Below are positions 45,513-64,000 of a stretch of 64,000 bases of DNA, one piece after another. A model generated the notes under the pieces. It ran no database searches and was not told the DNA's origin. It saw only the letters and a list, made by a program, of their open reading frames with translations. This DNA is from Candidatus Omnitrophota bacterium. GTDB taxonomy: Bacteria > Omnitrophota > Gorgyraeia > Gygaellales > Profunditerraquicolaceae. Position 1 is the first letter of the stretch. Each line of letters starts with the position of its first letter. The DNA lies in contig JALOQJ010000002.1 in the NCBI GenBank assembly GCA_025453445.1, positions 6,249-70,248 on the forward strand, read 5' to 3'. A program made the position numbers and the translations under genes.

Positions 45513-45523
45513 TATTTACTCCT

Positions 45524-46912: not shown

Positions 46913-49900
46913 TTACCTCCCAAAATTTGGCGGCGGCTGATACTTAGGTAGCTGTATCTGTGGCATTGGCTGATATTTTGGCATTGTCATCGGCTGAAAT
47001 TTTGGTAAATCAAATTTCATTGGCGGCGAATAAAAATTCGGCGTCTGAAATACCGGCTGTTGGAATCTCAACTGTTGAAAATCAACACGTGGCATTGAAA
47101 TATACATCGGCTGAGAAAATGGGTGCGTCTCATAATGAGTCCAGATTTGTGTTTCTCTGGTGCGCGTAGATAAATCAGGGTAGCTTATTTTTTGCTGCAT
47201 TTTAAATGAATAATTAAAATACGGATCTGATATAGCCCCGGACATGGAACGAGAAAATGCCATATTCGGCACTAATGGCTGCCATGGTAAATCAGTAATT
47301 GGAGTATTAATACCTATATCTTTAAGAAAACTATTGCGTCCACTATAACAATTTTTCCCTAAGCCGGGGATATTGAACATATTATATGATTCGATCTTAC
47401 CACGATAATTAGCTATATTATCAAAAACTTGCTTTGTGGCTATAGGATCAACTGTCAAGGTCCTATATATAACCAATCCATCCAAGATCTTTTTGTCTAC
47501 TGAATTATATATCCCCTCAGTTGCAATAAGTTTAGAAATATTTTTATCTTTAGGATTAAAATCTATTGTTTTTGTGAAATTATTGTAAGTAACGCTTATA
47601 AAGGTATGATCTTGGCCTGCTATTATAGGGCTATATCCTATTTCTACCCCCATATTTGGCCTAGACAACTCCTTCATCGACCAACCACTAATACGCGTAT
47701 TAGGTATTAATGAATTCTGGATCAAATCCTCTCCAATAAAACCAGCCCGATCAGGAAGATTTCTTAAAGCTGAAGCAAAAACATGTTTAGTAAAAGGATC
47801 CTGTTCCTGCTTCAAAGATTGGGCAAAAGTTTTTGTTAAATCAGGATTACCTGGTAATCTTCCGCCCAAAGACAAAGCTGAGCTTTGACGGATGCCAACA
47901 AAGTTGTCATGAAGGCCGGCAGAAAGTATCGGCATCATTTTAGGTGAATCAATTTTGCCTGCAACATCAATAGCACTCTGGCGCAACAAAGAATTATTGC
48001 TACGAAAATTATTCTCCACAATATTGATTATTTCCGGCGACTTAATTTTATCCAAATAGATAGTAGCGGTTGCCTGAACCATAGGAGTAGGGCCCTGACG
48101 AGCTAACCTTAGAAAAGAATCGCTTATAGCCGGATCTATGCCTACCCTACTATTTGTTACCCGCATTGCTGCTATCTGTAATTCCGGAGCAGAGCTAGAT
48201 AAAAAAGGCCTGCCCATCTCAATCGCCTTCGGGCAACTTGATTGGCTTAATCCTGACAAAATCCCCAACTGAGTATTCAACTCCCTTTCTTTTAACATCC
48301 GGCTAATCGGCTCTTCTAACCTAGGATAATCCCCGATATGTCCTGATAAAATACCTGCCGCTGTAGAAGACACATCCGGAGATGGATCGCTTAATTTCTG
48401 AAATGCTTTATCAAATACGACTGGATTCTCCTTAAACCAACCCGGCACAGGCAATAATGCTGCCTGCCGCACAGCAGGCTCTGGATCATCTAAAGCCCCG
48501 ATAATGATTTCTTTAGCCTGCGGTTCATTAAAATCTGCCAAACCATAAATTACCACAGAACGAACCTCTACATCAGGATCTTTAGCCATCCCTACTAACA
48601 CATCCAATACCTCTTTACCGCCGATTTGCGCCAATGCTACCGCTATCCTTGTCTTAGTTTCTTTTTCTATGCCCGGCTGTTGCAACACATCTTTTAGATG
48701 AGACACTGCCCGCACATCACCTAATTTACCCAAAGCTGTGATTGCCTCGTTGACGATATTTTGATTTTTACTATTCAAAAACGAAACAAACAACTCAAAG
48801 GTACGTGAATCATCCATATTCCCCAGTGCCCAAATAGATACACAACTCAATTTCTCGTCGCTGTCATAGGCTGATTTCATCAGCGCATCTGTTACTTTTA
48901 CTTCGGAGAATTGTCCCAAACGAGACGCCACATAAACTCGCATCTCTGAATTGTAGTTCTTCGCATCAGAAAGAATAGTAATAAGCTGATCTATGCATTC
49001 CGGCTCACCCAGCTCTGCCAAAGCCAATGCGGCATATATAGAGACATATTTTTGTATTTTGTCCTTACTATCCCGCGAATAGTTATTGGCGTATATTGGT
49101 AGTTTATACTGAACTTTTTGCTTCACAATTTCTTCTTGCGATAAAGCAAAGGAAAGAAATCCGGGATTAGATATTTTATATTGGCCCCTAAGGCCAGTAA
49201 TCAGAATATCTCTACCTGCAGGATTACCTGCTAATCCCAGATTCATTGCTGCGTAGAATGAAATTTTAAAATCATCATTCTTTAAGGCCCTTAAGTACCC
49301 TTGAATTAAATCATCTTTTGTAATACCGATTTTTTCATAAAAACTACCCTGAGGATCTAGAAATACCGGGTTGTATGTATTAAATCCTAAAGACGTCTGA
49401 TAATCCACTAACCCTTGTTTAGCTCTTTCATCAAAGGCATTTGATGATGGAAAAATCTCTGGATAGTACTGATAGATAAGACAATATTTAGAGAATGCAG
49501 CCATATAATTTCCTTTACTAATATTTACTTCTGCCAGCCTGCGGCTTTCCAAAGCATCTTCTAACGAGAAACCAATAAAACGGATATACTCATTACTATA
49601 AGTCTGTGTCTTGCTGTTTTTAGCTTTAGCGATAGGCAAATTCTCATAATCGATATCATGCATACACCCACCGGTTGTACTTATAAACCCTATTATCAAT
49701 GCTATTATAACTCCTTTTTGCGTAAATCGGAATAACTTAATTACTTTATTGGCAACGAGTTGCAGAGCTGGCCAAACTTGGCTGATTCCGGAAAATAACC
49801 AAGGGCATATTGAAAATATGATGAGAATTATTGGTGGGGCAAGGCTAAAAATACATTCCCCCACTTGCCCCAAGGCGCCGAAGTTATCCACATTGTAGCG

Positions 49901-52900
49901 GAGGTTTAAACCTCCGCTACATGCGGCAGAGGCGAATGAAGGCAGTAGCGTTGCGCCGATTACCAAACCAAAGCAAGCTACGCCCAGCATTGTGCAAACT
50001 TCGCTGATGCCTTTTTTGCCGCCGCCCCTGTCCGGGCCAGCGCCGGGATTTTGTTGTGTGAATTGTAAAGGCTCAAAAGATTCGGAACGCGGGTCATATT
50101 TTGTTATTTTATTATCGCAGTAATGAAAAAAGGTGGGGAAGTTCCCAAGCGGGAAAGATATCTCCGTTCTTTGCTTTGAGGTAAATTGAGCTAAGTCGTA
50201 TTCTTCAGAAGCAAATACCATAATAAACGACTTATCTCCTCTGGCTCCAGACGTCTGGTAAGTCCCCCTCAATAAACCCAAAGCGCCTAAAGCTTTTTCC
50301 TGCGTGTATGAATCTTTTATAAACGGATAATAGCCAAATACAAAAATTTGCTTATATTTTTCTGTTAATAATTCTGAAAAGTAATAAGGGCGTTGTTTTA
50401 TTAAATCGGCAAAGTTAATAACAAGGGTTTCTTGAGCATCATACCCTTCCTTTATTTTCTCTATATAAAGTTTGGCTACCTCATCAGGGACTCCAGAAAT
50501 GAAAACTGGCATTACATCTGAAATGGCCTTTTGGAAATCAGCGCATTTATGTAAGGCTAATTCTAATTTTTCAGCACTGCTTGACGAAGCGCCCCCGCCC
50601 GCGCCTCCGTCAATATTGTTATTTTGGGACACTTCTGGCATAACAAGGCTTTTAGCATTAGATTTAGTCTTAGGCCAAACTAATCCTATTTCATAGAATA
50701 GTTTTTTCAACTGAGAAGGCATATTCCTTAGAAGATATTTATATCCATTTATTGCGTTCGTAATTTCCAAACTCTCTGTTCCGATTATTTCAAAAGCTAA
50801 TTCTCCAGAGAAAAACTTTGAAATAAATTCTTTAAGTGCATTTTGTGGAGTATCAACTACAGACGATCCGAAAGTAACGCTGAAATATGCCAAAGAAAAT
50901 TTCTGATTTTTATTATTAAGCGCTTGTGTTTGATCTACTAATTGCCTAAATAAATCTTCATGATCTTGAGATGCTAATTCAATATAATCATGCAAAAGCT
51001 CATGACGGATATTTGGTTCTGTAGTTTCTTTCGGAACAACTACTACCCGCTCAAGATGTTTATTGAACTTACCATCAAAATATTCAAATACTCGTAAATA
51101 AAATTCTCTAATCTTTGGTTTATTAGAATTCTCTACACAATGCCTATTCAAATATACGCCCTTAGCCCAGAAAGCGTCCGGAGTATATTTTGATGCTATC
51201 TCCATAATATCCCTGAAGGATTCATCATCCGAAATCACCTCAACGCCCGGGATTATAAATCCATCCCTAATAATTCCCTTGGGGAGAATTGGGGACGTTT
51301 CTATTTTTCCGCCTTGTCGCATTTCCCTATCTTCCGGAATATGCTGAAATAACCGCCTGCCCCCGAACAAATCAAGTAACTTCTGCGACGGATAGACATC
51401 GCCCATTCCCCGCGGCTGGATAGGATTCTTATCTGGCCAACGCATATCAACATAATGCGGATTGCCCTTTTGAAACCCTTTCCCGCCCGCGCCGCCGCCG
51501 CGCGGAAATAGGCCTTCCGCCATTATCGCTGCGAATAATTTTGAGGTTTCAATTGCTGTCTCCAAAATAGAATCTCTGATATACTCTGCGTCCCTGCGGT
51601 ATGTATACACTGACAGGCCGAGTTTCTGCATAATTTCCCTTAACTCTTTCTTAAATTTCGGCCTTTCGCTTAATGACTGGAAACGCCAAAGGTATGCCCG
51701 AAGCAGATAATGGTACGGCGTCTCTGCGTAAGCATTATATATATTCGGACCACGCGTGGCCTTATCGCATACTTGAATTATATGCTCCGCATCCGAGTGG
51801 AAAGCCGATTTTCTTACTGCCGCTATTTTTTGATAAACACGCATCCAGCTCAATACTGCAATTTCGTCCTCTGTAATTTTAGGGATAACAACTTGGCCAA
51901 ATAGGACTTTCGTATCATGCGGTTTCATATACGCGCTTAAACTACCCTTAATATATTCGGGCGCAATATCCACAGGCACAAGATGTATATGAATAGGAAG
52001 ACCCTTGTATTCAAGAGGCACTCGCCATAAGGTTAAACTTCCGTAGGCCTTTCTCATATCTTCTACAACAACATAAGTGTCGTAATCATTAAAAGTATCA
52101 TTTTCCCCAGCGTAAACAGCTGAACCGTATGCGATTATTGCCTGTAAATTTGTTGCGCCAAATAAATCTATAATAGATTGTGTATAACCAAATTTTTTCT
52201 GCTCTTCTGTACTCAATTCTGCCCGGCGGGCTAAAGCAGCTACTCTTGCGCTTCCCGGAAATAACGCCTTCAAATAATCTATTAATTTAAGTTTTATTTC
52301 CATAAGCGCTTCTCTGGGAGAGAAAGAAGAGATATCCAGAAGCTCATCTTTCTCTATTTTTCCTTCAGTTATCAGTAAATTTCTTATTTTTAGATATTTC
52401 TCATATTTCTCCTGCGCCCGGGCTTTGTTAATTTCTTTTTCGTGTATTATCTCATCATCTAGTGGCCCAATTATCCTGTTTATCCCATTTTGTAAATCAA
52501 GTAACTCAAAATCAACCAAAGGTATTCCCGCAACCTCTGCTCCCATCAAACCTGTGGTTGTCCCACTACCTAAGATTTCTTCTGCTTCTCTATAATGAGA
52601 CCGGTCAAAATACCTTAACCACTTTAGCTCATCCACGGACCAAACTGTAAGTTCTATGTCCTTGGGCAACTGCTGCAATTGCGCATCTACAAAAGCCCAC
52701 GTCAAAGGCCCATTGACGATTATGCATTTATGCGTTACATTCTCTATTTTCTTTTTACCTTGCGCTAGTATAGAAACATCTGTATCAACTGGTATTTTAA
52801 GATTAATTGGAAGACTGTCTTTGTGCCGAGCCGAGCTAGTGACCCCACCCCCGCCCGCGGCGCGGACACCATCTTGAGCGTGCGCCGGGCTGCCGGCGGT

Positions 52901-55900
52901 TTCGCCCCTGCCTCTTTTCTTGCCTAACGCCCCCATATTCCTATGATGCGCTAACCGAAAATCAAGGATATTCCCCCCTAAAGGAAATTCCCTGCCCATT
53001 AGCTCAGGCCAAGTTATTCCATCAAATCCGCCTAGCGATGGAATATCCTTATAATGCATATCCTGATTTATCCTGTCCCTATTGCCACCAGCACCGCCGC
53101 CAGATACCAGATATTCTAGCGTTAAAGAATATACTGCGTGATTTTCGATACTTATACAGCCACCGACAAACTTAATAATAAAAGGAGCGGACTCTTGAAT
53201 CGTTTCTTCGGTATACCCCCTGGCCTCAACTGGATTAAAGCTAACCCCATCTTCTCCTTTTAATATATCCCTAACAAATAATTTCTCTTCATGTCCGTCA
53301 AAATCTAAAATCTCAACATCTACTTCTTGCTTACCAGCGCAACTATGGAACCAAAATTCAAAATGCCTATTTTCACCTGAAAGCTGCTTCTCCACTGGGC
53401 CTTCTTCTACGATAATGCGCGATATAAGTCGATACGGAACTATTGCTACATCAAGCGTTTTATTAACATAAGGCCGGATTTCTCGCTTCTGAAAGAAATG
53501 AGAACAATCTTCTATCGCTTCATAATCCTGTCTTATTTTACCAAGGCCAATTTTTTGTTCTTTATATGAACGCTTAAATTTTAAGACGTTTATAATATAG
53601 TAAATAGCCGCGACCGCCCAAAACAATACAAGCGTAGAAGCTACGCCAAGCCCAGAAGCAGCTTTCCTATCATCTAAAACAAAATAAAATAATATACCCG
53701 GGCAACTTAAAGTCGCGATACTGACTAAGTAAACTACCCAGCGAAAGGATACCCTGCGTTCTTTTTCAGCTTTATATATTGAAGCTATCTTGTCTTGGCA
53801 TAAACGCAGCTTATTCCCAACGCGAATTTTCTGAAAGTGCCGCTCTATTTTTCCGCTAGGATATGGTTGTTTGTTCTCTAGTGCGCCAGAACTATGATGT
53901 TTTATATTGAAAGCTCGAATACTACTTTGAGGATATTCATTGGGATTGTAACCTGGCATATCACAAGAGACTGCGGATAATTTATTTTTAGCATCAAGAA
54001 AATATAAAATCGCTATGACGAGTAAAATAATTACGATGACCTCCGGTGGAGCAAAACTGAAGATACATTCTTTAATCTGCGCCAAGGCGCCGGAGTTATC
54101 CACATCGTAGCGGAGGTTTAAACCTCCGCTACATGCGGCAGAGGCAAATGAAGGCAGGATTGTTGCGCCGATTACAAGAGCAAAACAAATTAAACCCAAC
54201 ATTGTGCAAACTTCGCCGATGCCTTTTTTGGCGCCCCCGCCCGCGCCGCCCCTTTTATTTTTGGTCCCAGTTGATTTCTGCAAAATATCGTATTTGTTCA
54301 ACATGGCTACCATACAATTTAGGATTTCGTTCGCAAAAACCTTGGATTGCTGATAAACCATATAAGAAGAGGACCTGCATATAAAGACGGCACTGAACCT
54401 AAAGGAAAGACCTTGTAATATTTGCATGAAATTCTGGATTTCTTCTTCAAACCGATAGGCCGGCATCTCATTGAAAGCATCCAAATCAAGGCTTAATACG
54501 TATTGCCCATTATCCTGAGGCCATATCAGCGCGTTTAACCCATTCTCAGGAACAATATTAAATGTCATGTTTGCTGTTTTTCGTATTCTTTTCACAGGGC
54601 TGTCGTAGGAAACTAAATAATATCCTTTTGCCGTTTTTGCATCGAAGGGAATTCCAACCCCGGGTCCTCTCGGCCCTCTATGTGTACTGACGTGTTCTTC
54701 ATAAGCAACTTTCAAAACCGGTGAGGATTTATTAAAATAAACAAATCTACCAAACAGCGATCTTAGGCTTGGTATCCAGAATAATTCGCTCAAGTCGTTT
54801 TCTCTGACCAGTGCGGTAAAAATACCGCCTTCATGCATTGTCTTTTCGGCATAGCGCATGACTGTCTCAAGCGACGGACGCAACGGTATTCCCGTTTTAT
54901 AATCCGGCATCACTGTTGCCCCGGTATCATCATGAAAATCATTGTTTAAAACGATCAACCTGTTCCCGAGTTTATTTTGCCGCTGCAGTATTTTCACAAC
55001 CGGAAGCAAAAGCTGATGATCTTCCGCGACATACAGAGGAACATTTTGTGCGCCTGAAACTGTTATTTGGAATAACCCGCCTCCCGGATAATCGAACCGA
55101 CCATCTTGTTGCGCGGCAATGAGTTTAACCGTGTCACCTTCTATCTTAATTTCAGCGGCTTTTTGGCATCGCATAACGGCATATTTTTTCTTCCAAACAA
55201 GAAGCCGTTGCCATTTTTCAAGAAGATATTGTCGATACCATCTTCGATCATTATCATTTTTGATAGTGATGGCGTATTGTAATTTTTTAACCAATACTTC
55301 CTTCGAAAGTCCTGTCTCGTTAAAAACACTTACCATCTGCTTAATAGCAGCATCCTGATCGTTTTTATGACACAAAATCTCATTAAGCAATTCCTGCATC
55401 CTTTTTTCCTGCTCGCCCTTGTTGGATGTCCATCTTTGATCTTCATTAATTGAAGTTATGCGTTCCAGATAATGTTTTTTTCCTTCTTTAAGCAAATGCT
55501 TCTCGCGCCGAACTGCCTCCGGTGAATGAAAGCGGCTGCTGTTCTTTATTTCCTGTTCAACAATCTGTAAAATTTGCCTGTGCCATTCAGGATGATATTT
55601 TTCTGATACCGGTATTTCGTCATGGTGTCGGGCAGTGTTCCGATCTCCGGCGTGATATCCTTCTTCTTCCAGGATAACAGCTAACGTCTCTACGCTTAAC
55701 ACTTCAAACAACTGGCGTGTCATATATATATTTTCTTCCAAACGCCCTGCGGTTCCGGCATGGGCCAAAACATATTCATCGCCATCCTTGATGATATAAT
55801 ACGGATGCATTTCATCTCCCTCCAAAAGCACAAGATTGTGCCTCTCCATAAAGGGCGGGTATGTTCTTGTCATTAAATTCTCAATAGCTGCCAATTTTAA

Positions 55901-58900
55901 CAAAATCGATTCAGGCGTTCCTTTTGGTAAGAAGACTAGATGCAGGTCCGTTATTTTGATAGTGTTCTTAAGTCCAATTTGGTCTGCAATAAATTTATTA
56001 ATACGGTCATGGAAGGCAGGGGTGTACGTCCCTTGAGTTCCTAAATTATTGGGCGAACTTTGTATAATAATGGGGACGGTTCTATTTTTTGCCCGCCAGA
56101 GGAATGTGGCAACTCCCACAAGGGAAAATAATGCGAGGATAGGCAATAGGTATGAAGAGAAAGCGGCTGTCTGCATTTCCTGTCCCGGCGGGGCGAGTGA
56201 GAAAATACATTCCCTAACCTGCCCCAAGAAGGCGCCAAAGTTATCCACATCGTAGCGGAGGTTTAAACCTCCGCTACATACGGCAGAGGCAATCGAAGGC
56301 AGGATTGTTGCGCCGATCGACGCGCCAAGGCAAGCTACGCCCAGCATTGTGCAAACTTCGCCGAGGCCTTTTTCTTTCCCGCCCGCGTTGCCGGCTTGAG
56401 CAACCTCTCTGATATCTTCATCGGTTCTTCTCCTAAAGGAAAAATATTCGAAACTATCCCGAATTACTAATAATTTTTTACTCAGTATTACAAAATCATT
56501 CATTACAGAATTAGTGAAAAAACTCTTTGGTACTTGGTTCCTTATCGTATTCAGTTTTGCTATCGAGCCTTCGCCTTTTGTTTCGACTTTAGGCTTAGCG
56601 TAAAATGTCTCAATATTTTCTTTGCTAGAGAAAATAGCCATTAATTCAGGTTGCCCTGTCAATAGTCGCACAAGTTCCTCAGATTCTGCTTTTAATGCAA
56701 TTAGTTGTTTCCTCTGAGATTTTCCTTTACGATATCCACTAAAAATGTCTTGAAGCGAACATTCAAGAGAAAGTAACTTATTCTCTAAATCGTGCAAGTA
56801 AATATATTCTCTAATAACTTTTTGGGCTTCGTAAGATAGCAATTGGCCTTCTATCTTCTTATTAAAATAAGTTTCAAAAAGCCGATTTTCCATTACAGAA
56901 ATACAGTTATTACAATACGACTGATAGGCATCAAAAGCCTGAAGTAAATCAATCCGTAATAATATATATTCGAGGGCTGCGGGTTCCTTATCTTGAAAAT
57001 ATTTTCTGATTTGATTATAAGCCTGTAGCCTATTCGCTAAATCAAATGGCTGTTCTGTGTTTTGCCTGACTTCGTTCATTACAAGATTCTTTAGTTTCTG
57101 CGGCAGACCGCATTTCCATGCAACCGGCACTTGTTCGGGGATATTTTTAATTTCTATTATTTTCATAATTGCTTGTTTAAAAACTTTTAACCTGCTTCCG
57201 CTCCCTCGCGGCCCTAGGTTACTTTTATAAAACCTCCAGCCCATAAAGCCGCTTCTCCCAAAAGGAAACGCCAACTCCATCGGGTCAAAACTCCTTAGCA
57301 GGTCGCCTTTCGCTGAGAATAACGAACTGTCATTATAACGAACACCGGGGCCTATTTTGCCACCCCCGCCCGCGCCGTTGGCCCGCGAACCGATCAAAGA
57401 GTCATCAGAATAGCCCACCCCATAGAGCGTACAGCCCTTCCAGGGTGCGAAGTCACCCTCTTCTTTCCGATCATCCAGCTCCACGTAATACCGGCGGGAA
57501 CCCTTAGGATCCTCTACCAGATAAACACTTTCCTCAAAACGTTTTGTCTCTGTTGCATCCATCACGGCGAAAAGGGCCTCCCGGATGATGGATGCGGGCA
57601 AAAATGGTGCCGCGTATCCTTTCACAACCACGGCCATGGCTGTGTCGAGATGGCGCAAAAATACTATAGCCCGTTCAGAAGACATTCTCCGGATAATCTC
57701 CAAAATCGCGTCATTCCTTTCTACCTCCGGAGCCAACTCGGCAATCAGTTTCTGCGCAGCCGCGTTACGAAGAACTTCATCCGGACGCGTAATCATCCGC
57801 GTCATGCTCATGATTTGCCTGTTATCAATACTATCGACCTTCATACATTTTTCGATATTCGGCATCTGCTCTTCGAGCCAATCCCGGGGCCAATAAAATC
57901 TCGGAGGAACTGCCAGCCCTTCCCGGAGAAAATCGCGCTGCAGTATCCTTAACTTTTTACCCGCCTCTTCCCGAGCATAACCCATTGCCTGAAGGCGGGC
58001 ATGGATCAATGGCAAATAATACCAAAACATGTTGAAAGCAGTCGTCTCACTTTCGTAAAGATACTTTCCCGCTTCCAAAGCTTCGACGGGATTAATACCT
58101 TCCAAGAAAGAAAGCATAGCCTCGCGGCTCTTTCGTCCGGCCAAAAGCGCGGCAACCGGTGAGGCAATGCAGTGATGCATTAACAAATCCCGCCCCTTTT
58201 CCTTTATAATCAAACCTTTAATTCCAACTAAAACATCGTCAGAGAGAAGAAGAGCCAGACGCAAGTCTCGATCATCAAGGTCAGCGCGATGAACGTCCGC
58301 CAATAAAGACGCGATCTTAGCTTCAGAGAGAATCTTCCGGGCCCGCTCTTCCATCCCGGACAACGACAGCCGCGAGAGAAATGCCGGACGTAAGACGCCC
58401 CAAGGATAGGAACTCTCAGGGAACCCTACCAATTCCACTAATGCAGGATACTGCTGCGCGTAATTAACAACTCCAATCTTTCCGTTTTGTACGGCCCTTC
58501 CAATAATATTATCCACTTCCACTGTAGTCAGATGGCTTGGAACTACCTGCAAGAGATCCCTAGTCAGCTTCTCCAGAGAATCCGCTCGCCCGACGGCGTC
58601 CTCTAACAGTACCAATCCTAAAGAACTCCATCCCGCGCATGTAAGAATCTCCTTAACACTAAAATTATGGTCGCAGAGAAATACATCATTAGGATAAATA
58701 TGATGCGCCTCATGATTGATAATCTGCCACATTAACTCTCCAATGTCATAGAGATGCTCCGTATTAAGGAAGGACGCCCGATAAAGAGGAAGGAATGACG
58801 CGCGATAAAGAAGCTTGAAAAGATGCGCCGGTAGAAGGGCTTCACCCTGAGCGGGCAGGGCAGCGGCCACGATGAATTTATTAGGGCCTTCGTAAGCCAG

Positions 58901-61900
58901 ATACATGTCGCGGGCATCCGGCTCTCTGCCCGAAGGATAATAAAACCGGTATCGTGTCCGGTGCATACTTTCAATTTCTTTCTTCGCATACTCCGGGTTA
59001 GAATAATGATGCTTACGGACATACTGTTCGACCATAGAAAAAATATTCGCAAGCTCGGGATCGCTGGACGCTTCGACAAAACGGCCCGTCTTTAAAAGAC
59101 CTTCGATTGTCCAATTCAATTCCTCTCTGCCATACCCGCGTGAAATGCCTTCGGCGCCCTGATCGCCGCCCCCGCCCGCGCCGCCGTCATCTATAGGCTG
59201 CATCAGGCTGCCTAAATTGACATCTGAATCATTCTTTCCTACTCCTATTGGCTGTAATAATATCGAGCGAGGCTGTCTAAATACGCAGGCATAAGCAAAC
59301 TGAACAGGATTAAAATGGTTTAAATAATAACCGACGAGCAACAATATGATGATACCAATTTCTACTTGACTTAGGGGCAAGCATAGTATATTCTTAAATG
59401 AAGGGAGGAAATATATGCATAAGAAACAATATATGGTGATTATTGAAAGGGACGAGGACGGTATGCTGGTAGGTACTGTTCCCAGCCTGAAAGGGTGCCA
59501 TAGCCAAGCTAAGAATATGCCAACTTTACTTGAACGAATTAAAGAGGCGATCCAGCTCTGCTTAGAGGTAGAAAATCCTAAAATTCCGTCTTTAGAATTT
59601 GTCGGGCTGCAAGAAGTTGAAGTTAATTGATGTCGAGGCTCACTCCCCTTAGGCCAACCGAAGCCATCCGCATTTTGACCCACTTGGGTTTTGAACGTAT
59701 CCGCCAAAAAGGCAGCCACATTTATTTTCGCCATCCTGACGGCCGCTCTACGGTAGTACCTTTTCACAAAGGCGAAGACTTGAGCAAAGGCCTTTTGAGC
59801 GCAATCCTTAGGGATATTGAGTTGCCGTGGGACGAATTTATTGCCGCTAAGTGAGTTCCTACAAACCCTGCAAGCCACCCAAATAAAAATCGTAACAGGT
59901 AAAATTAAAATCGCCGGATAAGCGAGCCTGTAAATATACTCTCCAACTTGCCCCAAGGCGCCGAAGTTATCCACATTGTAGCGGAGGTTTAAACCTCCGC
60001 TACATGCGGCAGAGGCAAATAAAGGCAGGATTGTTACGCCGATTACAAGAGCAAAACAAATTAAACCCAACATTGTGCAAACTTCGCCGATGCCTTTTTT
60101 GGCGCCCCCGCCCGAATTCTTTAACATTGGTCCCACGGCGCTATCTTTGACGAATCTTTCAAAATATCTAGTGAAATCAAAAATTCCTGATTTTGAAAGC
60201 GCTTCGGTAATACTGGTTTTAAAAATATTCCCTACTACCGCATATTTATTTCCCTTGGGAATCATAATATCTCCGCGAAAATCTACAAGAACACAGGTAC
60301 TTCTTTCGTCTGATTTTAGGCATGCTATTTTTAATCTACCAACGTATGGCAAATTAAAAAGACTCTGGGTAACTTCCTGAAAATCCTGGTCGCTGACAAA
60401 ATAGTCATTTGCAATAGCAGAAGTCGCTACTCTCCCAGCAGTAACATATTGCCTTATGCCCCACTCGGCGACACCCGCATCGGCAAGCTGTCGACCCAAC
60501 AAAGGCAAATCAGCTATATTCTTTTTTGTAGCCACAGTAGATACAGCTAATACAAATTTACGCCTGATTAATCTTGAGAATAGTTTCCAAACATTTCTGT
60601 ATTGCGCCCTAGATCTCTCTCCTCTTACAGCAACGTGGACATCTTCAGTAGAGCCTTCTATTGGGATAGACAATGTATCAAGATAAAGTTCAAGTTTATC
60701 AATTATATTTTCATCTAACAGATCACCAGAAATCTGCAGACAAACTAAAATTCTCTGCTCATAAATATATTTTATTATTTCAATAATATCGGGGATCAAC
60801 AAAGCGTCTCCTCCGGTGATAACCATAGACCTGATCCCTTGTTCCTTTAATTTATCTATAATGCGCTTTGCTTCTTCAAAAGTAATTTCTCTTTTGGAGC
60901 ACGAAGCTTTTCTCCGGAAACAAATCGGACAGTTCACTTCACAGGAATCAGTGGCATAAAATGCTATATGAATAATTTTCGGATTCTGTTGGTGCAGTTT
61001 TCCTATCTGCCCCCCGCCCGCGCCGCGGAGGTTTTTGTCAAACACTGGTCTGCTGTAGCCGGAAAGCAACTTGACATTTATCGTTGGAGGTGGTATGGTT
61101 ATATTGTGAGGTGAAAAACTATGAATAAAAATGCCCGGGAAGCCAAAAAACATTTGCAAAGACTGCGCAAACTTACTGCCAACACTCCATCCCCTTTCAA
61201 AGGGATGACTCTTGAAGAGGCAATCACGAAGATGCGAAAAGTTAGGGAACAGTTGTGGGAGGAAAAGCTTGCATTTCGTCCTTGATACAAATGAATTTGT
61301 GGGCGCGATAGGGTTAGTCAGGAACCCACCTTCGGAAATCCTTTTTAATATTCTCATAGAATCATCACCGCGGCATACCATCCATGTCCCCCGGCTGATA
61401 ATTAACGAAGTAAAACGCAATATTCCTCCTAATATTTTCACGGAATTCATAAAGATTGTCATACCGATTGTTATTATTGACGAAGATATCTTTGTGCCTT
61501 TTGAGATAGGCATAAAATATGAATCTGCCGGCCTAAAACCCGCGGACGCATTTATCGCCGCATACGCCGAATGGACGGGCGCTGAAGTATTAGCGACTGA
61601 AAACAGGCATTTTCTCTCCCGGCAAACCAATCTTCCTTTTAAGGTCATGAATGCCGAACACTGTCTTAAAATTTTAGGCAAATAATACCAAACCTTACCA
61701 ATCTTTCTTGACATCCACCATATTCCCTTTATTAGCTTATACACCGGCCCGGTAGGAAAATTGTAGAGAACAGACCCGCCCCCGCCCGCGCCGCCGCGTG
61801 GAGTTTTACTCTGCAATGCTTCATAAACATCAATCGCCTTTATGCCTAATTCTTTCCCTGCCTGAAAATCAGTAAACCTTCCGTTTATAACACTCATCCC

Positions 61901-63970
61901 TTCTGCGAATCCTGCGTCCCTATAAACAGCTCCTTCTGTTCCATACAACATCAAAAGCTCCAAATAAGGAAGCATCGCTATTTCAAGCATGGTTGAAGCC
62001 AAATGAGCAATTTTACCCGGTTGAGCAGGCATATTTGGTATCAAGTAGAAAATCGACTCTCCATAACCGACTCTTACCGGTTTATCATAAGAAGTTACTT
62101 TTTCATCTAACCCAACAACCACAGTTTTATCCGGCCTGACAAATTCAAAATTTCCACCGGCGTTAATCGCTACATCCACAAATACGCGGCGCTTGGGAGA
62201 TCTATCACTTATTTCTATAATTAATTCTTTATTGATGGTAACGGGCGCTTTCCTGCCGGGAAGTGATGCCGCTCCGACAACTGCGTCAGCCTTTATCAGG
62301 GCATCTTTTATCTTCCGCTGCTGGGAATCCGAGAGAACCTCTAATCTGCCGCTAGCTATTTCTTCCCTAAATATCTCCCGGATATCATCCAAGTTTTCGG
62401 ATAGATCAGTAAGCGTAACCGTAGCGCCCAAGAAAAACGCTGCTCCACAGGCAGCCAAACCAACGGTGCCTGCTCCGGTAATCAACAGGTGTTTTCCTTT
62501 AAGGTTTTCATCATCCAGAGAATAACTATAATGCATAATGTTAATGTGTAAAATCCCTTCCCTGCGCTTAACATCCCCTATAACATCACTGCCGGAAACT
62601 CTCTCTTCGTTCTCATTCAGATAAATCAACGCCTGAAAAACTGCCTCAATACCGGAAACAATATTCATTGCGTCTAAACAGACGCGGGTTTTCCCCTTGC
62701 GCACTTTTATTCGGCTGATCCAGTGAGGAATAATATTAAGCCCCCAAGAATCCATAAAATTTGGATTAAATAATAAGCAGGTATGCGCGTCTGCCTCAAT
62801 TTCCTCTAAGGCAAGGCAGCTTACTTTTGACTTGAGGATCTTTTCAGTCATCTCTTTATCAGAAGCAAAATTAAAATAACTAGCCAGGATTTTACCTGCC
62901 CCAAGATAGGCTAATTCATTATCCATAGGTGCATTGACTTTTAAAATTATAACTTCTTTGCCCTCTTCAACTGCTCCTTCTCCTATCTTATCCAACTGTT
63001 CCCTGTCTGCTGCTATTTTCGCTCCGAGCCTTTCATAATAATCATCATTTATCCCGCTTAAGGATCCGGCCTTAGACTCAACATAAATTTCCAATTTGAT
63101 ATTTTTTTCTTTAGCAAATTTCAGAAGTTTATCCACAGCAAGAGACAGCCCGACCCTTCCTTCATTAGGCCTAATTTCCCGCGGCACAAGAATTACTGTG
63201 CCGGTTTTTTTAACAGTTTCAAAAGTGGGTACGAGTAATTTACGGCTACCGGAAGAAATCAATCTTTCTAACTGGCTGGGGGTGCCGTCTTTCTTTTTTG
63301 TCACTATTGCGCCAAGTGTCCTGCATTCCTCAATTATTCTAAGAAGAGTTCGAAGGCAAGCCTCAGGCAAATCTTTCCGCGAAACATCCTGTGCAGTAAC
63401 AAAAGATTCTCGCCGCCATAAATGCGCACCATACGTCCCAGCTACTTTAAAAAGCCCCTGCAAATTTTCTCCTAGTATAGAGATAACTTCTCGGTTAAGA
63501 TGGTTGCCGGCAATACAAAAAAGAATATCCCACTGAATCTTGCCAACAGGAGCGGGTAATCTTAATACATGAAAGCCCCATCCCGTCTCATTATTAAATG
63601 GCGCTAAGGCTTCTAAAATCGGCCTTAAGAATTCCGCTTCTTCTAATGAAGGCGCTTTGCCAATTGAAAGCAAGTGCGGACGGCCGGTAGAATCAAGCCC
63701 GGTTACTACCGGGTCATCAGCTGCTATACAAATAGATATACCGGATATATTTGAAGGCCCTTCCTTTGCCACCAACTGGCCCGGAGCATCTACTTTCACT
63801 ATAGCTTTACCCGGTGGGCCTGCCGGCTTGCCCGCGCCCGCGCTGGCGGGATTTTCCCGCGCCGAGCTGTTTGAGGTTTCGGAATTAGCCGGCTCCGGTA
63901 GTAAACACTGTTGTGTATCTCCTAATAGATCTTCATCCTTTATAATATCGATATGGTCAAAATCTATCAT
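46913..63970 (-). CDS. giant 5,685-codon open reading frame. A modular polyprotein-like fusion of ~13 unrelated cassettes joined by GGAGGG-encoding GC-rich motifs. The N-terminus is still open at the window edge.
   Basis: No stop codon for 17,058 nt on the minus strand, and the frame remains open to nt 64000. Module order N-to-C (higher to lower coordinates): unknown N-terminal region + AlaDH/PNT-like Rossmann domain (LLITGAGTVGLAACG); antisense of the PIN toxin-antitoxin cassette; radical SAM domain (CEVNCPIC, GGDALL); TM-anchor repeat; antisense of the hicBA cassette; unknown; unknown; TM repeat; unknown; TM repeat + extra TMs; mini-module; NTase-like (GS...DYD); HExxH (HELLH); unknown; TM repeat + HEAT repeats + Pro/Gln-rich tail. 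Whether it is translated as one product is not established. Confidence 0.5.
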   Translation of the reverse strand: MIDFDHIDIIKDEDLLGDTQQCLLPEPANSETSNSSARENPASAGAGKPAGPPGKAIVKVDAPGQLVAKEGPSNISGISICIAADDPVVTGLDSTGRPHLLSIGKAPSLEEAEFLRPILEALAPFNNETGWGFHVLRLPAPVGKIQWDILFCIAGNHLNREVISILGENLQGLFKVAGTYGAHLWRRESFVTAQDVSRKDLPEACLRTLLRIIEECRTLGAIVTKKKDGTPSQLERLISSGSRKLLVPTFETVKKTGTVILVPREIRPNEGRVGLSLAVDKLLKFAKEKNIKLEIYVESKAGSLSGINDDYYERLGAKIAADREQLDKIGEGAVEEGKEVIILKVNAPMDNELAYLGAGKILASYFNFASDKEMTEKILKSKVSCLALEEIEADAHTCLLFNPNFMDSWGLNIIPHWISRIKVRKGKTRVCLDAMNIVSGIEAVFQALIYLNENEERVSGSDVIGDVKRREGILHINIMHYSYSLDDENLKGKHLLITGAGTVGLAACGAAFFLGATVTLTDLSENLDDIREIFREEIASGRLEVLSDSQQRKIKDALIKADAVVGAASLPGRKAPVTINKELIIEISDRSPKRRVFVDVAINAGGNFEFVRPDKTVVVGLDEKVTSYDKPVRVGYGESIFYLIPNMPAQPGKIAHLASTMLEIAMLPYLELLMLYGTEGAVYRDAGFAEGMSVINGRFTDFQAGKELGIKAIDVYEALQSKTPRGGAGGGGSVLYNFPTGPVYKLIKGIWWMSRKIGKVWYYLPKILRQCSAFMTLKGRLVCRERKCLFSVANTSAPVHSAYAAINASAGFRPADSYFMPISKGTKISSSIITIGMTIFMNSVKILGGILRFTSLIISRGTWMVCRGDDSMRILKRISEGGFLTNPIAPTNSFVSRTKCKLFLPQLFPNFSHLRDCLFKSHPFERGWSVGSKFAQSLQMFFGFPGIFIHSFSPHNITIPPPTINVKLLSGYSRPVFDKNLRGAGGGQIGKLHQQNPKIIHIAFYATDSCEVNCPICFRRKASCSKREITFEEAKRIIDKLKEQGIRSMVITGGDALLIPDIIEIIKYIYEQRILVCLQISGDLLDENIIDKLELYLDTLSIPIEGSTEDVHVAVRGERSRAQYRNVWKLFSRLIRRKFVLAVSTVATKKNIADLPLLGRQLADAGVAEWGIRQYVTAGRVATSAIANDYFVSDQDFQEVTQSLFNLPYVGRLKIACLKSDERSTCVLVDFRGDIMIPKGNKYAVVGNIFKTSITEALSKSGIFDFTRYFERFVKDSAVGPMLKNSGGGAKKGIGEVCTMLGLICFALVIGVTILPLFASAACSGGLNLRYNVDNFGALGQVGEYIYRLAYPAILILPVTIFIWVACRVCRNSLSGNKFVPRQLNIPKDCAQKAFAQVFAFVKRYYRRAAVRMAKINVAAFLADTFKTQVGQNADGFGWPKGSEPRHQLTSTSCSPTNSKDGILGFSTSKQSWIASLIRSSKVGIFLAWLWHPFRLGTVPTSIPSSSLSIITIYCFLCIYFLPSFKNILCLPLSQVEIGIIILLLVGYYLNHFNPVQFAYACVFRQPRSILLQPIGVGKNDSDVNLGSLMQPIDDGGAGGGGDQGAEGISRGYGREELNWTIEGLLKTGRFVEASSDPELANIFSMVEQYVRKHHYSNPEYAKKEIESMHRTRYRFYYPSGREPDARDMYLAYEGPNKFIVAAALPAQGEALLPAHLFKLLYRASFLPLYRASFLNTEHLYDIGELMWQIINHEAHHIYPNDVFLCDHNFSVKEILTCAGWSSLGLVLLEDAVGRADSLEKLTRDLLQVVPSHLTTVEVDNIIGRAVQNGKIGVVNYAQQYPALVELVGFPESSYPWGVLRPAFLSRLSLSGMEERARKILSEAKIASLLADVHRADLDDRDLRLALLLSDDVLVGIKGLIIKEKGRDLLMHHCIASPVAALLAGRKSREAMLSFLEGINPVEALEAGKYLYESETTAFNMFWYYLPLIHARLQAMGYAREEAGKKLRILQRDFLREGLAVPPRFYWPRDWLEEQMPNIEKCMKVDSIDNRQIMSMTRMITRPDEVLRNAAAQKLIAELAPEVERNDAILEIIRRMSSERAIVFLRHLDTAMAVVVKGYAAPFLPASIIREALFAVMDATETKRFEESVYLVEDPKGSRRYYVELDDRKEEGDFAPWKGCTLYGVGYSDDSLIGSRANGAGGGGKIGPGVRYNDSSLFSAKGDLLRSFDPMELAFPFGRSGFMGWRFYKSNLGPRGSGSRLKVFKQAIMKIIEIKNIPEQVPVAWKCGLPQKLKNLVMNEVRQNTEQPFDLANRLQAYNQIRKYFQDKEPAALEYILLRIDLLQAFDAYQSYCNNCISVMENRLFETYFNKKIEGQLLSYEAQKVIREYIYLHDLENKLLSLECSLQDIFSGYRKGKSQRKQLIALKAESEELVRLLTGQPELMAIFSSKENIETFYAKPKVETKGEGSIAKLNTIRNQVPKSFFTNSVMNDFVILSKKLLVIRDSFEYFSFRRRTDEDIREVAQAGNAGGKEKGLGEVCTMLGVACLGASIGATILPSIASAVCSGGLNLRYDVDNFGAFLGQVRECIFSLAPPGQEMQTAAFSSYLLPILALFSLVGVATFLWRAKNRTVPIIIQSSPNNLGTQGTYTPAFHDRINKFIADQIGLKNTIKITDLHLVFLPKGTPESILLKLAAIENLMTRTYPPFMERHNLVLLEGDEMHPYYIIKDGDEYVLAHAGTAGRLEENIYMTRQLFEVLSVETLAVILEEEGYHAGDRNTARHHDEIPVSEKYHPEWHRQILQIVEQEIKNSSRFHSPEAVRREKHLLKEGKKHYLERITSINEDQRWTSNKGEQEKRMQELLNEILCHKNDQDAAIKQMVSVFNETGLSKEVLVKKLQYAITIKNDNDRRWYRQYLLEKWQRLLVWKKKYAVMRCQKAAEIKIEGDTVKLIAAQQDGRFDYPGGGLFQITVSGAQNVPLYVAEDHQLLLPVVKILQRQNKLGNRLIVLNNDFHDDTGATVMPDYKTGIPLRPSLETVMRYAEKTMHEGGIFTALVRENDLSELFWIPSLRSLFGRFVYFNKSSPVLKVAYEEHVSTHRGPRGPGVGIPFDAKTAKGYYLVSYDSPVKRIRKTANMTFNIVPENGLNALIWPQDNGQYVLSLDLDAFNEMPAYRFEEEIQNFMQILQGLSFRFSAVFICRSSSYMVYQQSKVFANEILNCMVAMLNKYDILQKSTGTKNKRGGAGGGAKKGIGEVCTMLGLICFALVIGATILPSFASAACSGGLNLRYDVDNSGALAQIKECIFSFAPPEVIVIILLVIAILYFLDAKNKLSAVSCDMPGYNPNEYPQSSIRAFNIKHHSSGALENKQPYPSGKIERHFQKIRVGNKLRLCQDKIASIYKAEKERRVSFRWVVYLVSIATLSCPGILFYFVLDDRKAASGLGVASTLVLFWAVAAIYYIINVLKFKRSYKEQKIGLGKIRQDYEAIEDCSHFFQKREIRPYVNKTLDVAIVPYRLISRIIVEEGPVEKQLSGENRHFEFWFHSCAGKQEVDVEILDFDGHEEKLFVRDILKGEDGVSFNPVEARGYTEETIQESAPFIIKFVGGCISIENHAVYSLTLEYLVSGGGAGGNRDRINQDMHYKDIPSLGGFDGITWPELMGREFPLGGNILDFRLAHHRNMGALGKKRGRGETAGSPAHAQDGVRAAGGGGVTSSARHKDSLPINLKIPVDTDVSILAQGKKKIENVTHKCIIVNGPLTWAFVDAQLQQLPKDIELTVWSVDELKWLRYFDRSHYREAEEILGSGTTTGLMGAEVAGIPLVDFELLDLQNGINRIIGPLDDEIIHEKEINKARAQEKYEKYLKIRNLLITEGKIEKDELLDISSFSPREALMEIKLKLIDYLKALFPGSARVAALARRAELSTEEQKKFGYTQSIIDLFGATNLQAIIAYGSAVYAGENDTFNDYDTYVVVEDMRKAYGSLTLWRVPLEYKGLPIHIHLVPVDIAPEYIKGSLSAYMKPHDTKVLFGQVVIPKITEDEIAVLSWMRVYQKIAAVRKSAFHSDAEHIIQVCDKATRGPNIYNAYAETPYHYLLRAYLWRFQSLSERPKFKKELREIMQKLGLSVYTYRRDAEYIRDSILETAIETSKLFAAIMAEGLFPRGGGAGGKGFQKGNPHYVDMRWPDKNPIQPRGMGDVYPSQKLLDLFGGRRLFQHIPEDREMRQGGKIETSPILPKGIIRDGFIIPGVEVISDDESFRDIMEIASKYTPDAFWAKGVYLNRHCVENSNKPKIREFYLRVFEYFDGKFNKHLERVVVVPKETTEPNIRHELLHDYIELASQDHEDLFRQLVDQTQALNNKNQKFSLAYFSVTFGSSVVDTPQNALKEFISKFFSGELAFEIIGTESLEITNAINGYKYLLRNMPSQLKKLFYEIGLVWPKTKSNAKSLVMPEVSQNNNIDGGAGGGASSSSAEKLELALHKCADFQKAISDVMPVFISGVPDEVAKLYIEKIKEGYDAQETLVINFADLIKQRPYYFSELLTEKYKQIFVFGYYPFIKDSYTQEKALGALGLLRGTYQTSGARGDKSFIMVFASEEYDLAQFTSKQRTEISFPLGNFPTFFHYCDNKITKYDPRSESFEPLQFTQQNPGAGPDRGGGKKGISEVCTMLGVACFGLVIGATLLPSFASAACSGGLNLRYNVDNFGALGQVGECIFSLAPPIILIIFSICPWLFSGISQVWPALQLVANKVIKLFRFTQKGVIIALIIGFISTTGGCMHDIDYENLPIAKAKNSKTQTYSNEYIRFIGFSLEDALESRRLAEVNISKGNYMAAFSKYCLIYQYYPEIFPSSNAFDERAKQGLVDYQTSLGFNTYNPVFLDPQGSFYEKIGITKDDLIQGYLRALKNDDFKISFYAAMNLGLAGNPAGRDILITGLRGQYKISNPGFLSFALSQEEIVKQKVQYKLPIYANNYSRDSKDKIQKYVSIYAALALAELGEPECIDQLITILSDAKNYNSEMRVYVASRLGQFSEVKVTDALMKSAYDSDEKLSCVSIWALGNMDDSRTFELFVSFLNSKNQNIVNEAITALGKLGDVRAVSHLKDVLQQPGIEKETKTRIAVALAQIGGKEVLDVLVGMAKDPDVEVRSVVIYGLADFNEPQAKEIIIGALDDPEPAVRQAALLPVPGWFKENPVVFDKAFQKLSDPSPDVSSTAAGILSGHIGDYPRLEEPISRMLKERELNTQLGILSGLSQSSCPKAIEMGRPFLSSSAPELQIAAMRVTNSRVGIDPAISDSFLRLARQGPTPMVQATATIYLDKIKSPEIINIVENNFRSNNSLLRQSAIDVAGKIDSPKMMPILSAGLHDNFVGIRQSSALSLGGRLPGNPDLTKTFAQSLKQEQDPFTKHVFASALRNLPDRAGFIGEDLIQNSLIPNTRISGWSMKELSRPNMGVEIGYSPIIAGQDHTFISVTYNNFTKTIDFNPKDKNISKLIATEGIYNSVDKKILDGLVIYRTLTVDPIATKQVFDNIANYRGKIESYNMFNIPGLGKNCYSGRNSFLKDIGINTPITDLPWQPLVPNMAFSRSMSGAISDPYFNYSFKMQQKISYPDLSTRTRETQIWTHYETHPFSQPMYISMPRVDFQQLRFQQPVFQTPNFYSPPMKFDLPKFQPMTMPKYQPMPQIQLPKYQPPPNFGR
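49850..50046 (-). repeat. TM-anchor/linker repeat copy 4 (~190 bp), containing a 26-bp perfect palindrome at 49895-49920 and a degenerate linker motif at 50018-50046
   Basis: Encodes GAGPDRGGGKKGISEVCTMLGVACFGLVIGATLLPSFASAACSGGLNLRYNVDNFGALGQVGECIFSLAPP. More than 85% nucleotide identity to copies 1-3. Confidence 0.85.
50591..50607 (-). repeat. linker motif copy (CCCCCGCCCGCGCCTCC), encodes DGGAGGGAS
   Basis: GC island in AT-rich DNA. Same orientation and frame as the other copies. Confidence 0.8.
51482..51505 (-). repeat. linker motif copy (CCCGCCCGCGCCGCCGCCGCGCGG), encodes PRGGGAGGKG
   Basis: As above. Confidence 0.8.
52848..52865 (-). repeat. linker motif copy (CCCCCGCCCGCGGCGCGG), encodes RAAGGGGV
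   Basis: As above. Confidence 0.8.
53086..53104 (-). repeat. degenerate linker motif copy (CCACCAGCACCGCCGCCAG), encodes SGGGAGGN
   Basis: The protein-level linker is conserved while the DNA is more diverged. It bounds a ~70-aa mini-module between this copy and the one at 52848. Confidence 0.6.
54063..54252 (-). repeat. TM-anchor/linker repeat copy 3, containing a palindrome at 54106-54131 and a full linker motif at 54234-54252
   Basis: Encodes KRGGAGGGAKKGIGEVCTMLGLICFALVIGATILPSFASAACSGGLNLRYDVDNSGALAQIKECIFSFAPP. Confidence 0.85.
56205..56386 (-). repeat. TM-anchor/linker repeat copy 2, containing a palindrome at 56252-56277 and a partial motif at 56377-56386
   Basis: Encodes AGNAGGKEKGLGEVCTMLGVACLGASIGATILPSIASAVCSGGLNLRYDVDNFGAFLGQVRECIFSLAPP. 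Confidence 0.85.
57363..57377 (-). repeat. linker motif copy (CCCCCGCCCGCGCCG), encodes ANGAGGGGK
   Basis: As above. Confidence 0.8.
59169..59185 (-). repeat. linker motif copy (CCCCCGCCCGCGCCGCC), encodes DDGGAGGGGDQ
   Basis: As above. Forms the boundary of the inverted hicBA cassette. Confidence 0.8.
59415..59630 (+). CDS. hicB: HicB-family antitoxin (UPF0150)
   Basis: MHKKQYMVIIERDEDGMLVGTVPSLKGCHSQAKNMPTLLERIKEAIQLCLE is the canonical HicB N-domain. GAAGGGAGG RBS and a TTGACT-type promoter upstream. Encoded antisense within the giant ORF. Confidence 0.8.
   Translation: MHKKQYMVIIERDEDGMLVGTVPSLKGCHSQAKNMPTLLERIKEAIQLCLEVENPKIPSLEFVGLQEVEVN
59627..59854 (+). CDS. hicA: HicA-family mRNA interferase toxin
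   Basis: LTHLGFERIRQKGSHIYFRHPDGRSTVVPFHKGEDLSKGLLSAILRDIEL is the YcfA/HicA fold signature. 4-nt overlap with hicB. Confidence 0.8.
   Translation: MMSRLTPLRPTEAIRILTHLGFERIRQKGSHIYFRHPDGRSTVVPFHKGEDLSKGLLSAILRDIELPWDEFIAAK
59932..60114 (-). repeat. TM-anchor/linker repeat copy 1, containing a palindrome at 59978-60003. The linker motif is truncated after CCCCCGCCCG, followed by GAATTC, at 60105-60114.
   Basis: Encodes NSGGGAKKGIGEVCTMLGLICFALVIGVTILPLFASAACSGGLNLRYNVDNFGALGQVGE, then runs into the antisense of hicA. Confidence 0.85.
61021..61036 (-). repeat. linker motif copy (CCCCCGCCCGCGCCGC), encodes LRGAGGGQIG. The radical SAM module begins immediately after it.
   Basis: As above. Confidence 0.8.
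61120..61286 (+). CDS. small putative antitoxin partner of the PIN toxin
   Basis: ATG preceded by GAGGTG RBS. A TTGACA-17-TATGGT promoter lies ~40 nt upstream. 54 aa, basic and helical (MNKNAREAKKHLQRLRKL...). The stop overlaps the PIN ORF. Antitoxin role inferred from gene order only. Confidence 0.45.
61267..61685 (+). CDS. vapC: PIN-domain toxin (VapC-like)
   Basis: HFVLDTNEFV ... IDEDIF ... ADAFIAAYAEWTGAEVLATENRHF are the PIN acidic-residue motifs. The track ORF starts at 61212 (TTG), but a start near LHFVLD is more likely. Antisense within the giant ORF. Confidence 0.75.
61779..61796 (-). repeat. linker motif copy (CCCCCGCCCGCGCCGCCG), encodes PRGGAGGGGSV
   Basis: As above. Forms the boundary between the AlaDH-like module and the inverted PIN cassette. 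Confidence 0.8.
63831..63850 (-). repeat. degenerate linker motif copy (CCCGCGCCCGCGCTGGCGGG), encodes SAGAGKPAGP
   Basis: The N-most copy, ~40 codons into the track ORF. Confidence 0.5.
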
Positions 63971-64000
63971 AGAAAAACCATCAAGGTCCTTCCTGTTTAT

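Follow-up and report, generated by a model that had tools for sequence, protein, structure and literature searches.

An intact VapBC-type toxin–antitoxin operon lies antisense within a giant Omnitrophota reading frame and appears to be kept free of stop codons for its host

Four described systems come close to the locus analyzed here: type II toxin–antitoxin (TA) systems of the VapBC kind, the giant genes of Omnitrophota, sedentary chromosomal integrons, and long antiparallel overlaps between prokaryotic open reading frames (ORFs). The locus is a complete type II TA operon of ~615 bp (61071-61685, + strand) that lies antisense to a giant Omnitrophota ORF. It is situated in a 64,000-nucleotide stretch of contig JALOQJ010000002.1 from a Candidatus Omnitrophota bacterium, which is referred to as the window throughout; coordinates are those of the window unless a different locus (L003, L004, and similar) is named. 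The operon resembles VapBC systems in its two-gene organization with overlapping ORFs, in a sigma70-type promoter of its own and in a toxin with a PIN fold and conserved acidic residues. It is unlike them in that its 54-amino-acid (aa) partner protein carries no recognizable AbrB, RHH, Phd or MerR domain, and in that the whole family is subject to an extra constraint, with one antisense frame held stop-free across the operon. Considered as a TA system, it is a new representative of the VapBC kind whose partner protein is unclassified.

The giant ORF on the opposite strand resembles the giant genes described from Omnitrophota, in particular the class of “multi-enzyme metabolic clusters” (Nielsen & Lui 2026, bioRxiv 10.64898/2026.06.07.730766), in its tiling of unrelated Pfam domains, its length of thousands of codons, the PilZ gene downstream of it and the PilB and PilQ genes nearby. 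A PilZ gene after giant genes has been described by West-Roberts et al. (bioRxiv 10.1101/2023.11.21.568195), together with C39 (double-glycine) and S8 peptidase domains at giant-gene N-termini; the same authors cite reports of a single mRNA for giant Omnitrophota ORFs and of their detection by proteomics, and raise as questions whether these ORFs are read as one unit and whether the giant products are cleaved. A term search of these two studies returned no mention of opposite-strand genes, TA modules inside the ORFs, linkers or stop-codon avoidance, and no earlier account of TA modules embedded in giant genes or antisense to them turned up in broader literature searches. TA operons that lie antisense inside translated giant ORFs, with selection acting on the antisense frame, are apparently undescribed.

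TA cassettes are known to stabilize the chromosomal integrons of Vibrio. Like such sedentary integrons, of which the Vibrio superintegron is an example, the window has TA modules with their own promoters scattered in a long array, and a stabilizing role is plausible. Unlike integrons, the window array has no attC-like structure, its units are fused into one frame, and no integrase was seen among the window genes scanned, the head of the array lying beyond position 64000; unlike an integron cassette, moreover, the window TA module must be stop-free on its antisense strand. Long open frames antisense to conserved genes are also a property of long antiparallel overlapping prokaryotic ORFs (e.g., bioRxiv 10.1101/724807). 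The window frame differs from these in belonging to a much longer host ORF, and the case for it is built on a codon-usage control and on context, not on length alone.

The operon and the parts of the giant ORF that surround it comprise the following features.

61071-61099, + strand: sigma70-type promoter with extended -10 (TTGACA at 61071-61076, 17-nucleotide spacer, TG-n-TATGGT ending with the hexamer at 61094-61099)
61108-61114, + strand: Shine-Dalgarno sequence GAGGTGA for the small ORF, read from the sequence
61121-61285, + strand: basic ORF of 54 aa from the ORF list, presumed antitoxin, with ATG start and TGA stop
61257-61263, + strand: internal Shine-Dalgarno sequence GGGAGGA for the toxin gene, read from the sequence
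61269-61685, + strand: VapC-type PIN toxin of 138 aa with TTG start and TAA stop (61683-61685), assigned from Pfam, homologs and a structural model
46913-64000, - strand: giant multi-unit ORF, open through the window end, with ~13 units, Gly/Ala linkers and HEAT repeats at the C-terminal side
61775-61795, - strand: linker GGAGGGG (GGCGGCGCGGGCGGGGGCGGG) joining the AlaDH/PNT-like unit to the TA unit
61025-61774, - strand: read-through segment of the giant ORF (codons 733-982), antisense to the entire TA module, with 0 stops
61010-61024, - strand: linker GAGGG (GGCGCGGGCGGGGGG) joining the TA unit to the radical SAM unit
60113-61009, - strand: radical SAM unit (Pfam Radical_SAM, 69.3 bits), directly downstream of the TA unit in the giant frame

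The promoter matches the consensus at 10 of 12 positions in addition to the TG element and is the top promoter-like site in the 3.2 kb scanned (58900-62100). Across four aligned modules (alignment A1) the TTGACA and TGGTAT sequences are unchanged, and both the Shine-Dalgarno sequence of the small ORF and that of the toxin gene (GTGGGAGGAAAA) are invariant. A first description of this DNA, made from the letters and a list of ORFs and referred to below as the sequence-only reading, had proposed an inverted module between two motif copies, with a sigma70-like promoter of its own (TTGACA-17 nt-TATGGT), a ribosome binding site, a 54-aa ORF and an overlapping PIN ORF. Every one of these elements was recovered with slight corrections to the coordinates: the module is inverted relative to the giant ORF and flanked by two linker copies, whose cores lie at 61010-61024 and 61775-61795 rather than at 61021-61036 and 61779-61796. 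On the + strand, the linker copy 3' of the PIN gene contains a 6-bp GC-rich hairpin (61786-61801) followed by a T-rich tail (AGTTTTACTC). This hairpin is a terminator-like site at which the TA transcript could end.

The start of the PIN gene is placed at the TTG at 61212 in a mechanical list of ORFs. Homologs indicate the TTG at 61269 instead, because those listed, from a total of 472 in the database, are mostly 136–140 aa long and align from residue 1; with this start the PIN ORF overlaps the 54-aa ORF by 17 nucleotides (nt). The product matches the Pfam PIN family (PF01850) with 26.3 bits at a cut-off of 23.6, and in an alignment of 32 homologs the acidic residues E47, D93 and E111 show no variation, with conservation of at least 90% for D6; all four are present in the window copy. 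An AlphaFold model of the protein (pLDDT 87.7) was compared with solved structures using Foldseek, and the top PDB matches are the VapC toxins 5ecw, 3zvk and 5x3t (E 2e-5 to 1e-4, TM ~0.65), which come from Shigella, Rickettsia and M. tuberculosis. The PIN domain with canonical acidic residues that had been read from the translation is thereby borne out, and a lack of PIN-fold homology, named beforehand as the result that would overturn the assignment, is not what was found. A search with the PIN profile against PDB sequences gave nothing meaningful, and sequence similarity therefore reveals no relative with a solved structure. The PIN product is not called as a gene in the gene collection queried.

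The small gene upstream of the toxin is almost always present. Of 134 loci examined, 133 have a homolog of the 54-aa ORF immediately 5' of the toxin gene, and the protein is best described as a conserved partner and presumed antitoxin. It has zero family matches in Pfam and NCBIfam, none of the known antitoxin DNA-binding domains sought there (AbrB, RHH, Phd/YefM, MerR) was matched, and a word-indexed homolog search of the database returned just three homologs, all unnamed. A hidden Markov model check proposed earlier for both ORFs was thus positive for the PIN protein only, the small ORF matching neither the RHH nor the Phd nor the AbrB families.

The giant frame is open from 46916 to the window end, which corresponds to at least 5,695 codons, and over these ~17 kb it contains 0 stops as opposed to 397 and 487 in the remaining two minus frames. 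On a JGI contig that is 99.995% identical, the same frame is called as a gene of 9,533 aa. Within the TA unit (61025-61774) the giant frame again has 0 stops, as the sequence-only reading had stated; the remaining minus frames contain 18 and 14. The antisense product of the unit is 250 aa long, contains little E and D (3.2% combined) and much S (11.2%) and F (8.4%), and gave no match in Pfam.

The giant frame is codon-aligned with the antitoxin gene; over the PIN gene, sense and antisense frames share their third codon positions. The PIN frame contains nine junctions at risk (a codon followed by TAN or CAN), none of which creates an antisense stop. In the antitoxin gene, the codons TTA, CTA and TCA are all unused among six Leu codons and one Ser codon; TTA represents 32% of the Leu codons of the genome. 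In the PIN gene the same three codons are harmless for the antisense frame, and there they account for 6 of the 17 codons for Leu and Ser. Synonymous recoding of both TA genes with the window's own codon usage kept the giant frame open in 1.3% of trials (mean 3.4 stops), and shuffles of the two non-coding TA flanks kept it open in 21% and 10% of trials. The product of the recoding figure and the two flank figures gives a combined P of ~3e-4, a modest departure from chance when the window is taken alone. The same giant frame crosses a second inverted TA module, where the probability of a frame without stops is 0.0015 over the coding part and 0.0055 over the left flank.

59415-59854, + strand: HicB-like and HicA genes (HicA 72.2 bits, HicB_lk 27.4 bits)

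The same pattern extends to the relatives of the module. The three closest homologs with usable contigs (L003, L004, and L005), whose PIN proteins are 67–70% identical to that of the window, consist of the same two genes and lie beside or within huge minus-strand ORFs. In these three loci and in the window the same antisense frame has 0 stops, and the other two antisense frames have 9–18. Scans of metagenome and genome collections identified 132 further loci, and stops over the PIN gene were counted in 120 distinct modules. The antisense frame is without stops over the PIN gene in 78 of them. Amino-acid-matched codon use predicts ~2 stops per PIN gene and a total of 240, compared with 88 observed, and by a Poisson estimate only ~14% of PIN genes are expected to be stop-free. 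All 88 observed stops are found in the remaining 42 modules, in which 91.7 are expected; the null is therefore calibrated, since this subset behaves neutrally. The count of stop-creating junctions that had been suggested as a check consequently supports the sequence-only reading in the window and across the family alike.

An internal control is provided by codon usage. Across the open modules, 4 out of 530 Leu and Ser codons of the antitoxin gene (0.8%) are TTA, CTA or TCA, versus 569 out of 1,816 (31%) in the PIN gene. The state of the frame, open or closed, changes at least 22 times on a neighbor-joining tree, and for this reason the open frame is not a single inherited accident. These sequence comparisons show that the module family, which is widespread, is under selection that keeps one antisense frame stop-free.

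The association of the modules with giant ORFs is exclusively on the opposite strand. At least 25 modules are enclosed by open stretches on the opposite strand that measure 1,000 to >6,800 codons and in many cases overrun both ends of the 20-kb loci, and the same-strand open stretch around any module is never longer than 186 codons. Among loci with at least 1.2 kb of flanking sequence, minus-strand genes are present on both flanks in 25 out of 30 open modules and in 8 out of 19 stop-containing modules. Many modules outside giant ORFs have a free-standing antisense ORF of ~200–260 codons that covers the operon only (L020 9694-10428, L050, L067, L081, L105, and others). These ORFs usually begin with an ATG near the PIN stop and are located between co-directional minus-strand genes like an ordinary operon member.

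Other TA families occupy related giant ORFs in the same manner. A composition filter for antisense-looking stretches, followed by confirmation in Pfam, recovered the known modules plus several more in these ORFs. Opposite-strand DUF433 + DUF5615 (PIN_10-like) genes were found in L086 and L048, with DUF5615 ORFs in L048 and L100; PIN_3 toxins with a small upstream ORF in L108, L087, and L088, likewise on the opposite strand; DUF7718 + DUF5647 in L088; and HicB + HicA in L100. All of these further embedded TA genes are crossed by stop-free host frames.

L086 16922-17412: opposite-strand TA-type genes
L048 14347-15511: opposite-strand TA-type genes
L100 1754-2113 and 14912-15360: opposite-strand TA-type genes
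L088 1569-2000 and 8744-9239: opposite-strand TA-type genes
L108 10696-11338: opposite-strand TA-type genes
L087 623-1075: opposite-strand TA-type genes

The explanation that accounts best for these results, with a probability of roughly 0.68, is an intact VapBC-type TA operon that sits antisense in a giant translated ORF and is under selection to stay stop-free for the host frame. A ribosome that reads the host frame would be the simplest selective agent because only translation tells stop codons from other codons. Ribosomes on the host giant ORF would run through the TA module uninterrupted, and in other genomes the host would be an opposite-strand operon. Read-through in the window would add ~250 residues of spacer between Gly-rich linkers, after which the ribosomes would arrive at downstream units lacking a start codon of their own. 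The opposite orientation would let the module keep its promoter, start codons and stop codons while sparing the host frame a stop, and on its own strand the PIN ribonuclease would be translationally coupled to the small basic antitoxin-like protein. What the host may gain from the module could be addiction and stabilization of a repeat-rich array or defense, and the module could also be purely selfish.

Several points weigh against this explanation. The 54-aa partner fits no known antitoxin family by Pfam, NCBIfam or homolog search. The window, which ends at 64000, does not include the first ~3,800 codons of the giant ORF. Translation of the giant frame across this TA module, like translation as the selective agent, is deduced from the DNA sequence. 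The extension from giant ORFs to ordinary operons draws on the orientation of flanking genes only, and 47 modules are open even though the open stretch covers just the module (~200–300 codons). In 33 out of 46 such module-sized stretches the first start codon is an ATG, and a genuine antisense gene would look alike.

These short stretches are what a different explanation would predict, in which the antisense frame encodes a genuine third protein of ~200–260 aa that overlaps the whole TA operon and is carried by the giant ORF as one of its units; the avoidance of stops would then result from selection on this protein. Outside giant ORFs, 46 modules have an open stretch barely larger than the module, the ATG that comes first in most of them lies within a few codons of the PIN stop, and the coincidence of third codon positions over the PIN part, derived from the coordinates, is the most permissive overlap geometry. 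A third protein is nevertheless unlikely. Its product lacks a Pfam match and has the antisense-type composition given above, and in a third of the family, whose TA genes are intact, stops have accumulated in the frame as fast as neutrality predicts. Five unrelated TA families are stop-free inside giant ORFs, and five overprinted proteins would be less economical than one shared constraint.

A second alternative is an integron-like array in which the linker DNA is a site-specific recombination site that delimits mobile cassettes and TA cassettes are retained by killing cells that lose parts of the array. The Gly/Ala linker GGAGGGG (DNA core GGCGCGGGCGGG) occurs at ~12 unit boundaries and is restricted to the array, with linkers that span 50588-61795. 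The units are gene-sized, a lineage-specific linker lies ~10–90 nt from the PIN stop in the window, L086, L090, and L108, and the density of TA modules is high (2 in 17 kb in the window and at least 3 within 20 kb of L086). The units between motif copies had been taken for discrete cassettes in the sequence-only reading, which agrees with their gene-like size and with the match of the radical SAM unit to proteins of 270–300 aa. That reading also put forward, as a hypothesis, a stabilizing role of the TA modules in the array; its interpretation overall is supported in part. The homology between TA modules, however, spans only the -35 hexamer to the PIN stop codon in the alignment of four modules and does not reach the linkers; the travelling unit is the bare operon of ~615 bp.

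A role of the linkers as integron-type junction sites is not supported. An attC-like hairpin was sought at nine linkers by folding 101-nt stretches as single-stranded DNA, and the z-scores relative to shuffles ranged from -1.3 to +1.1 with no structure common to the nine regions; the attC idea was rejected on this ground. The linkers are, in addition, entirely different between lineages: GGAGGGG in the window, (F)GHPSGGM in L086 (DNA CACCCCAGCGGCGGGATG, frequently with ATG or TTG at the end), (R)SSSPV(E) in L108, L112, L075, L118, L129, and L115, GRDESRPY in L090 and RANAFG in L100. The window's linker motif is absent from L003, L004, L005, and L086, and repeat searches in L003–L005 detected no linker of any kind although these three loci have the embedded module. 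In L112 the Ser codons of the linker alternate between AGC and TCN, which argues that this linker is conserved as a peptide rather than as DNA, and one window copy (GGGAGG at 53084-53101, - strand) is encoded by codons (GGCGGCGGTGCTGGTGGC) unlike those of all other window copies. The DNA of the L090 linker forms a perfect 8-bp hairpin (GGGCGCGATGAATCGCGCCC). With no integrase seen among the window genes scanned and with one reading frame common to all units, which recombination alone does not require, an integron-like origin of the pattern is improbable.

Coincidence or artefact, in which composition, misassembly or a non-standard code produces the open frame and the giant ORF is no biological unit, is very improbable: this antisense frame is intrinsically the least stop-prone, with ~2 stops expected per PIN gene, and the window P of ~3e-4 is modest, but 0 stops in 17 kb stand against 397 and 487 in the other frames, two independent assemblies are 99.995% identical, the pattern repeats in dozens of independent metagenome-assembled genomes (MAGs) and metagenomes, and the internal codon-usage control gives 0.8% versus 31%. 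An alternative genetic code was rejected on the grounds that the giant frame lacks all three stop codons and the TA genes end in TGA and TAA.

The units of the giant ORF with Pfam matches are an AlaDH/PNT-like enzyme (AlaDh_PNT), the radical SAM unit and a HEAT-repeat protein. Residues 10–289 of the radical SAM unit align with residues 3–280 of a stand-alone protein, such homologs being 270–300 aa long. Because of this end-to-end alignment a unit can be regarded as a whole gene, with a linker in place of the stop codon, the intergenic spacer and the start codon. ATG, GTG and TTG are all absent between the linker and the CxxxCxxC motif, with the sole GTG located inside the motif. Since no canonical start precedes the motif, the only route to the radical SAM unit would be read-through that begins inside the antisense-TA segment or upstream of it. 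The giant ORF of the closest relative (L086 1-20409, - strand) contains PPDK_N, a Rce1-like CAAX protease, a response-regulator receiver, sigma-70 region 4 and peptidase M50, and looks like fused unrelated genes and not like one multidomain protein.

It is possible, with somewhat less than an even chance, that the giant “multi-enzyme” proteins as a whole are stop-free gene arrays with lineage-specific linkers, translated as a polyprotein that is probably cut at the linkers, and that at least five TA families have adapted to an antisense position in them. The linkers could be protease cleavage sites, and the Gly-Gly types would suit C39 peptidases; cutting of a polyprotein at Gly-Gly linkers would fit the C39 double-glycine peptidase domains reported by West-Roberts et al.

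Additional features were observed within the array. Four units open right after the linker with a common ~60-aa module (KKGIGEVCTMLG(L/V)(I/A)C...ILPSFASAACSGGLNLRY(N/D)VDNFGA), which resembles a signal peptide or membrane anchor yet is internal to the giant ORF. The analogue that follows the linker in L086 is a [KR]G-x-x-E-[VL]-x-T-L-G-hydrophobic module.

About 59900-60100, 56180-56377, 54040-54229 and 49830-50017, - strand: copies of the ~60-aa post-linker module, 83–97% identical in DNA
52862-53083, - strand: very short unit of 74 aa, flanked by two linkers, one of which is the GGGAGG copy at 53084-53101

The surrounding genes place the locus in chromosomal Omnitrophota DNA. The neighboring genes in the window encode NrdJ, phosphoglycerate mutase, two PilB proteins and PilQ, the PilZ gene (44797-45549) lies downstream of the giant ORF, and the MnmG protein of the window is 100% identical to a protein from a “Candidatus Omnitrophica” MAG. 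Between its phosphoglycerate mutase and MnmG genes, the matching JGI contig has a gene for a 158-aa product with a Y1_Tnp Pfam match (IS200/IS605-type transposase); its counterpart in the window is a 161-aa ORF (11673-12158, + strand).

The finding is of more interest than a plain TA annotation would suggest, since TA modules and giant ORFs prove to stand in a recurrent and apparently undescribed relationship. If the favored explanation is correct, it describes a new lifestyle for selfish or addiction modules, on the opposite strand within a coding region and with the host frame unbroken. Embedded modules of this kind are hard for gene callers, which report either the giant ORF or the small genes and rarely both. 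The lineage-specific linkers at the boundaries of gene-sized units would be concrete candidate cleavage sites, which bears on the question of cleavage raised by West-Roberts et al. As to their question of reading as one unit, selection against stop codons in antisense TA DNA argues that uninterrupted translation of the giant ORF matters, and if the giant ORFs are indeed gene arrays, the selection on the antisense frame would be the first sequence-level evidence that they need uninterrupted translation.

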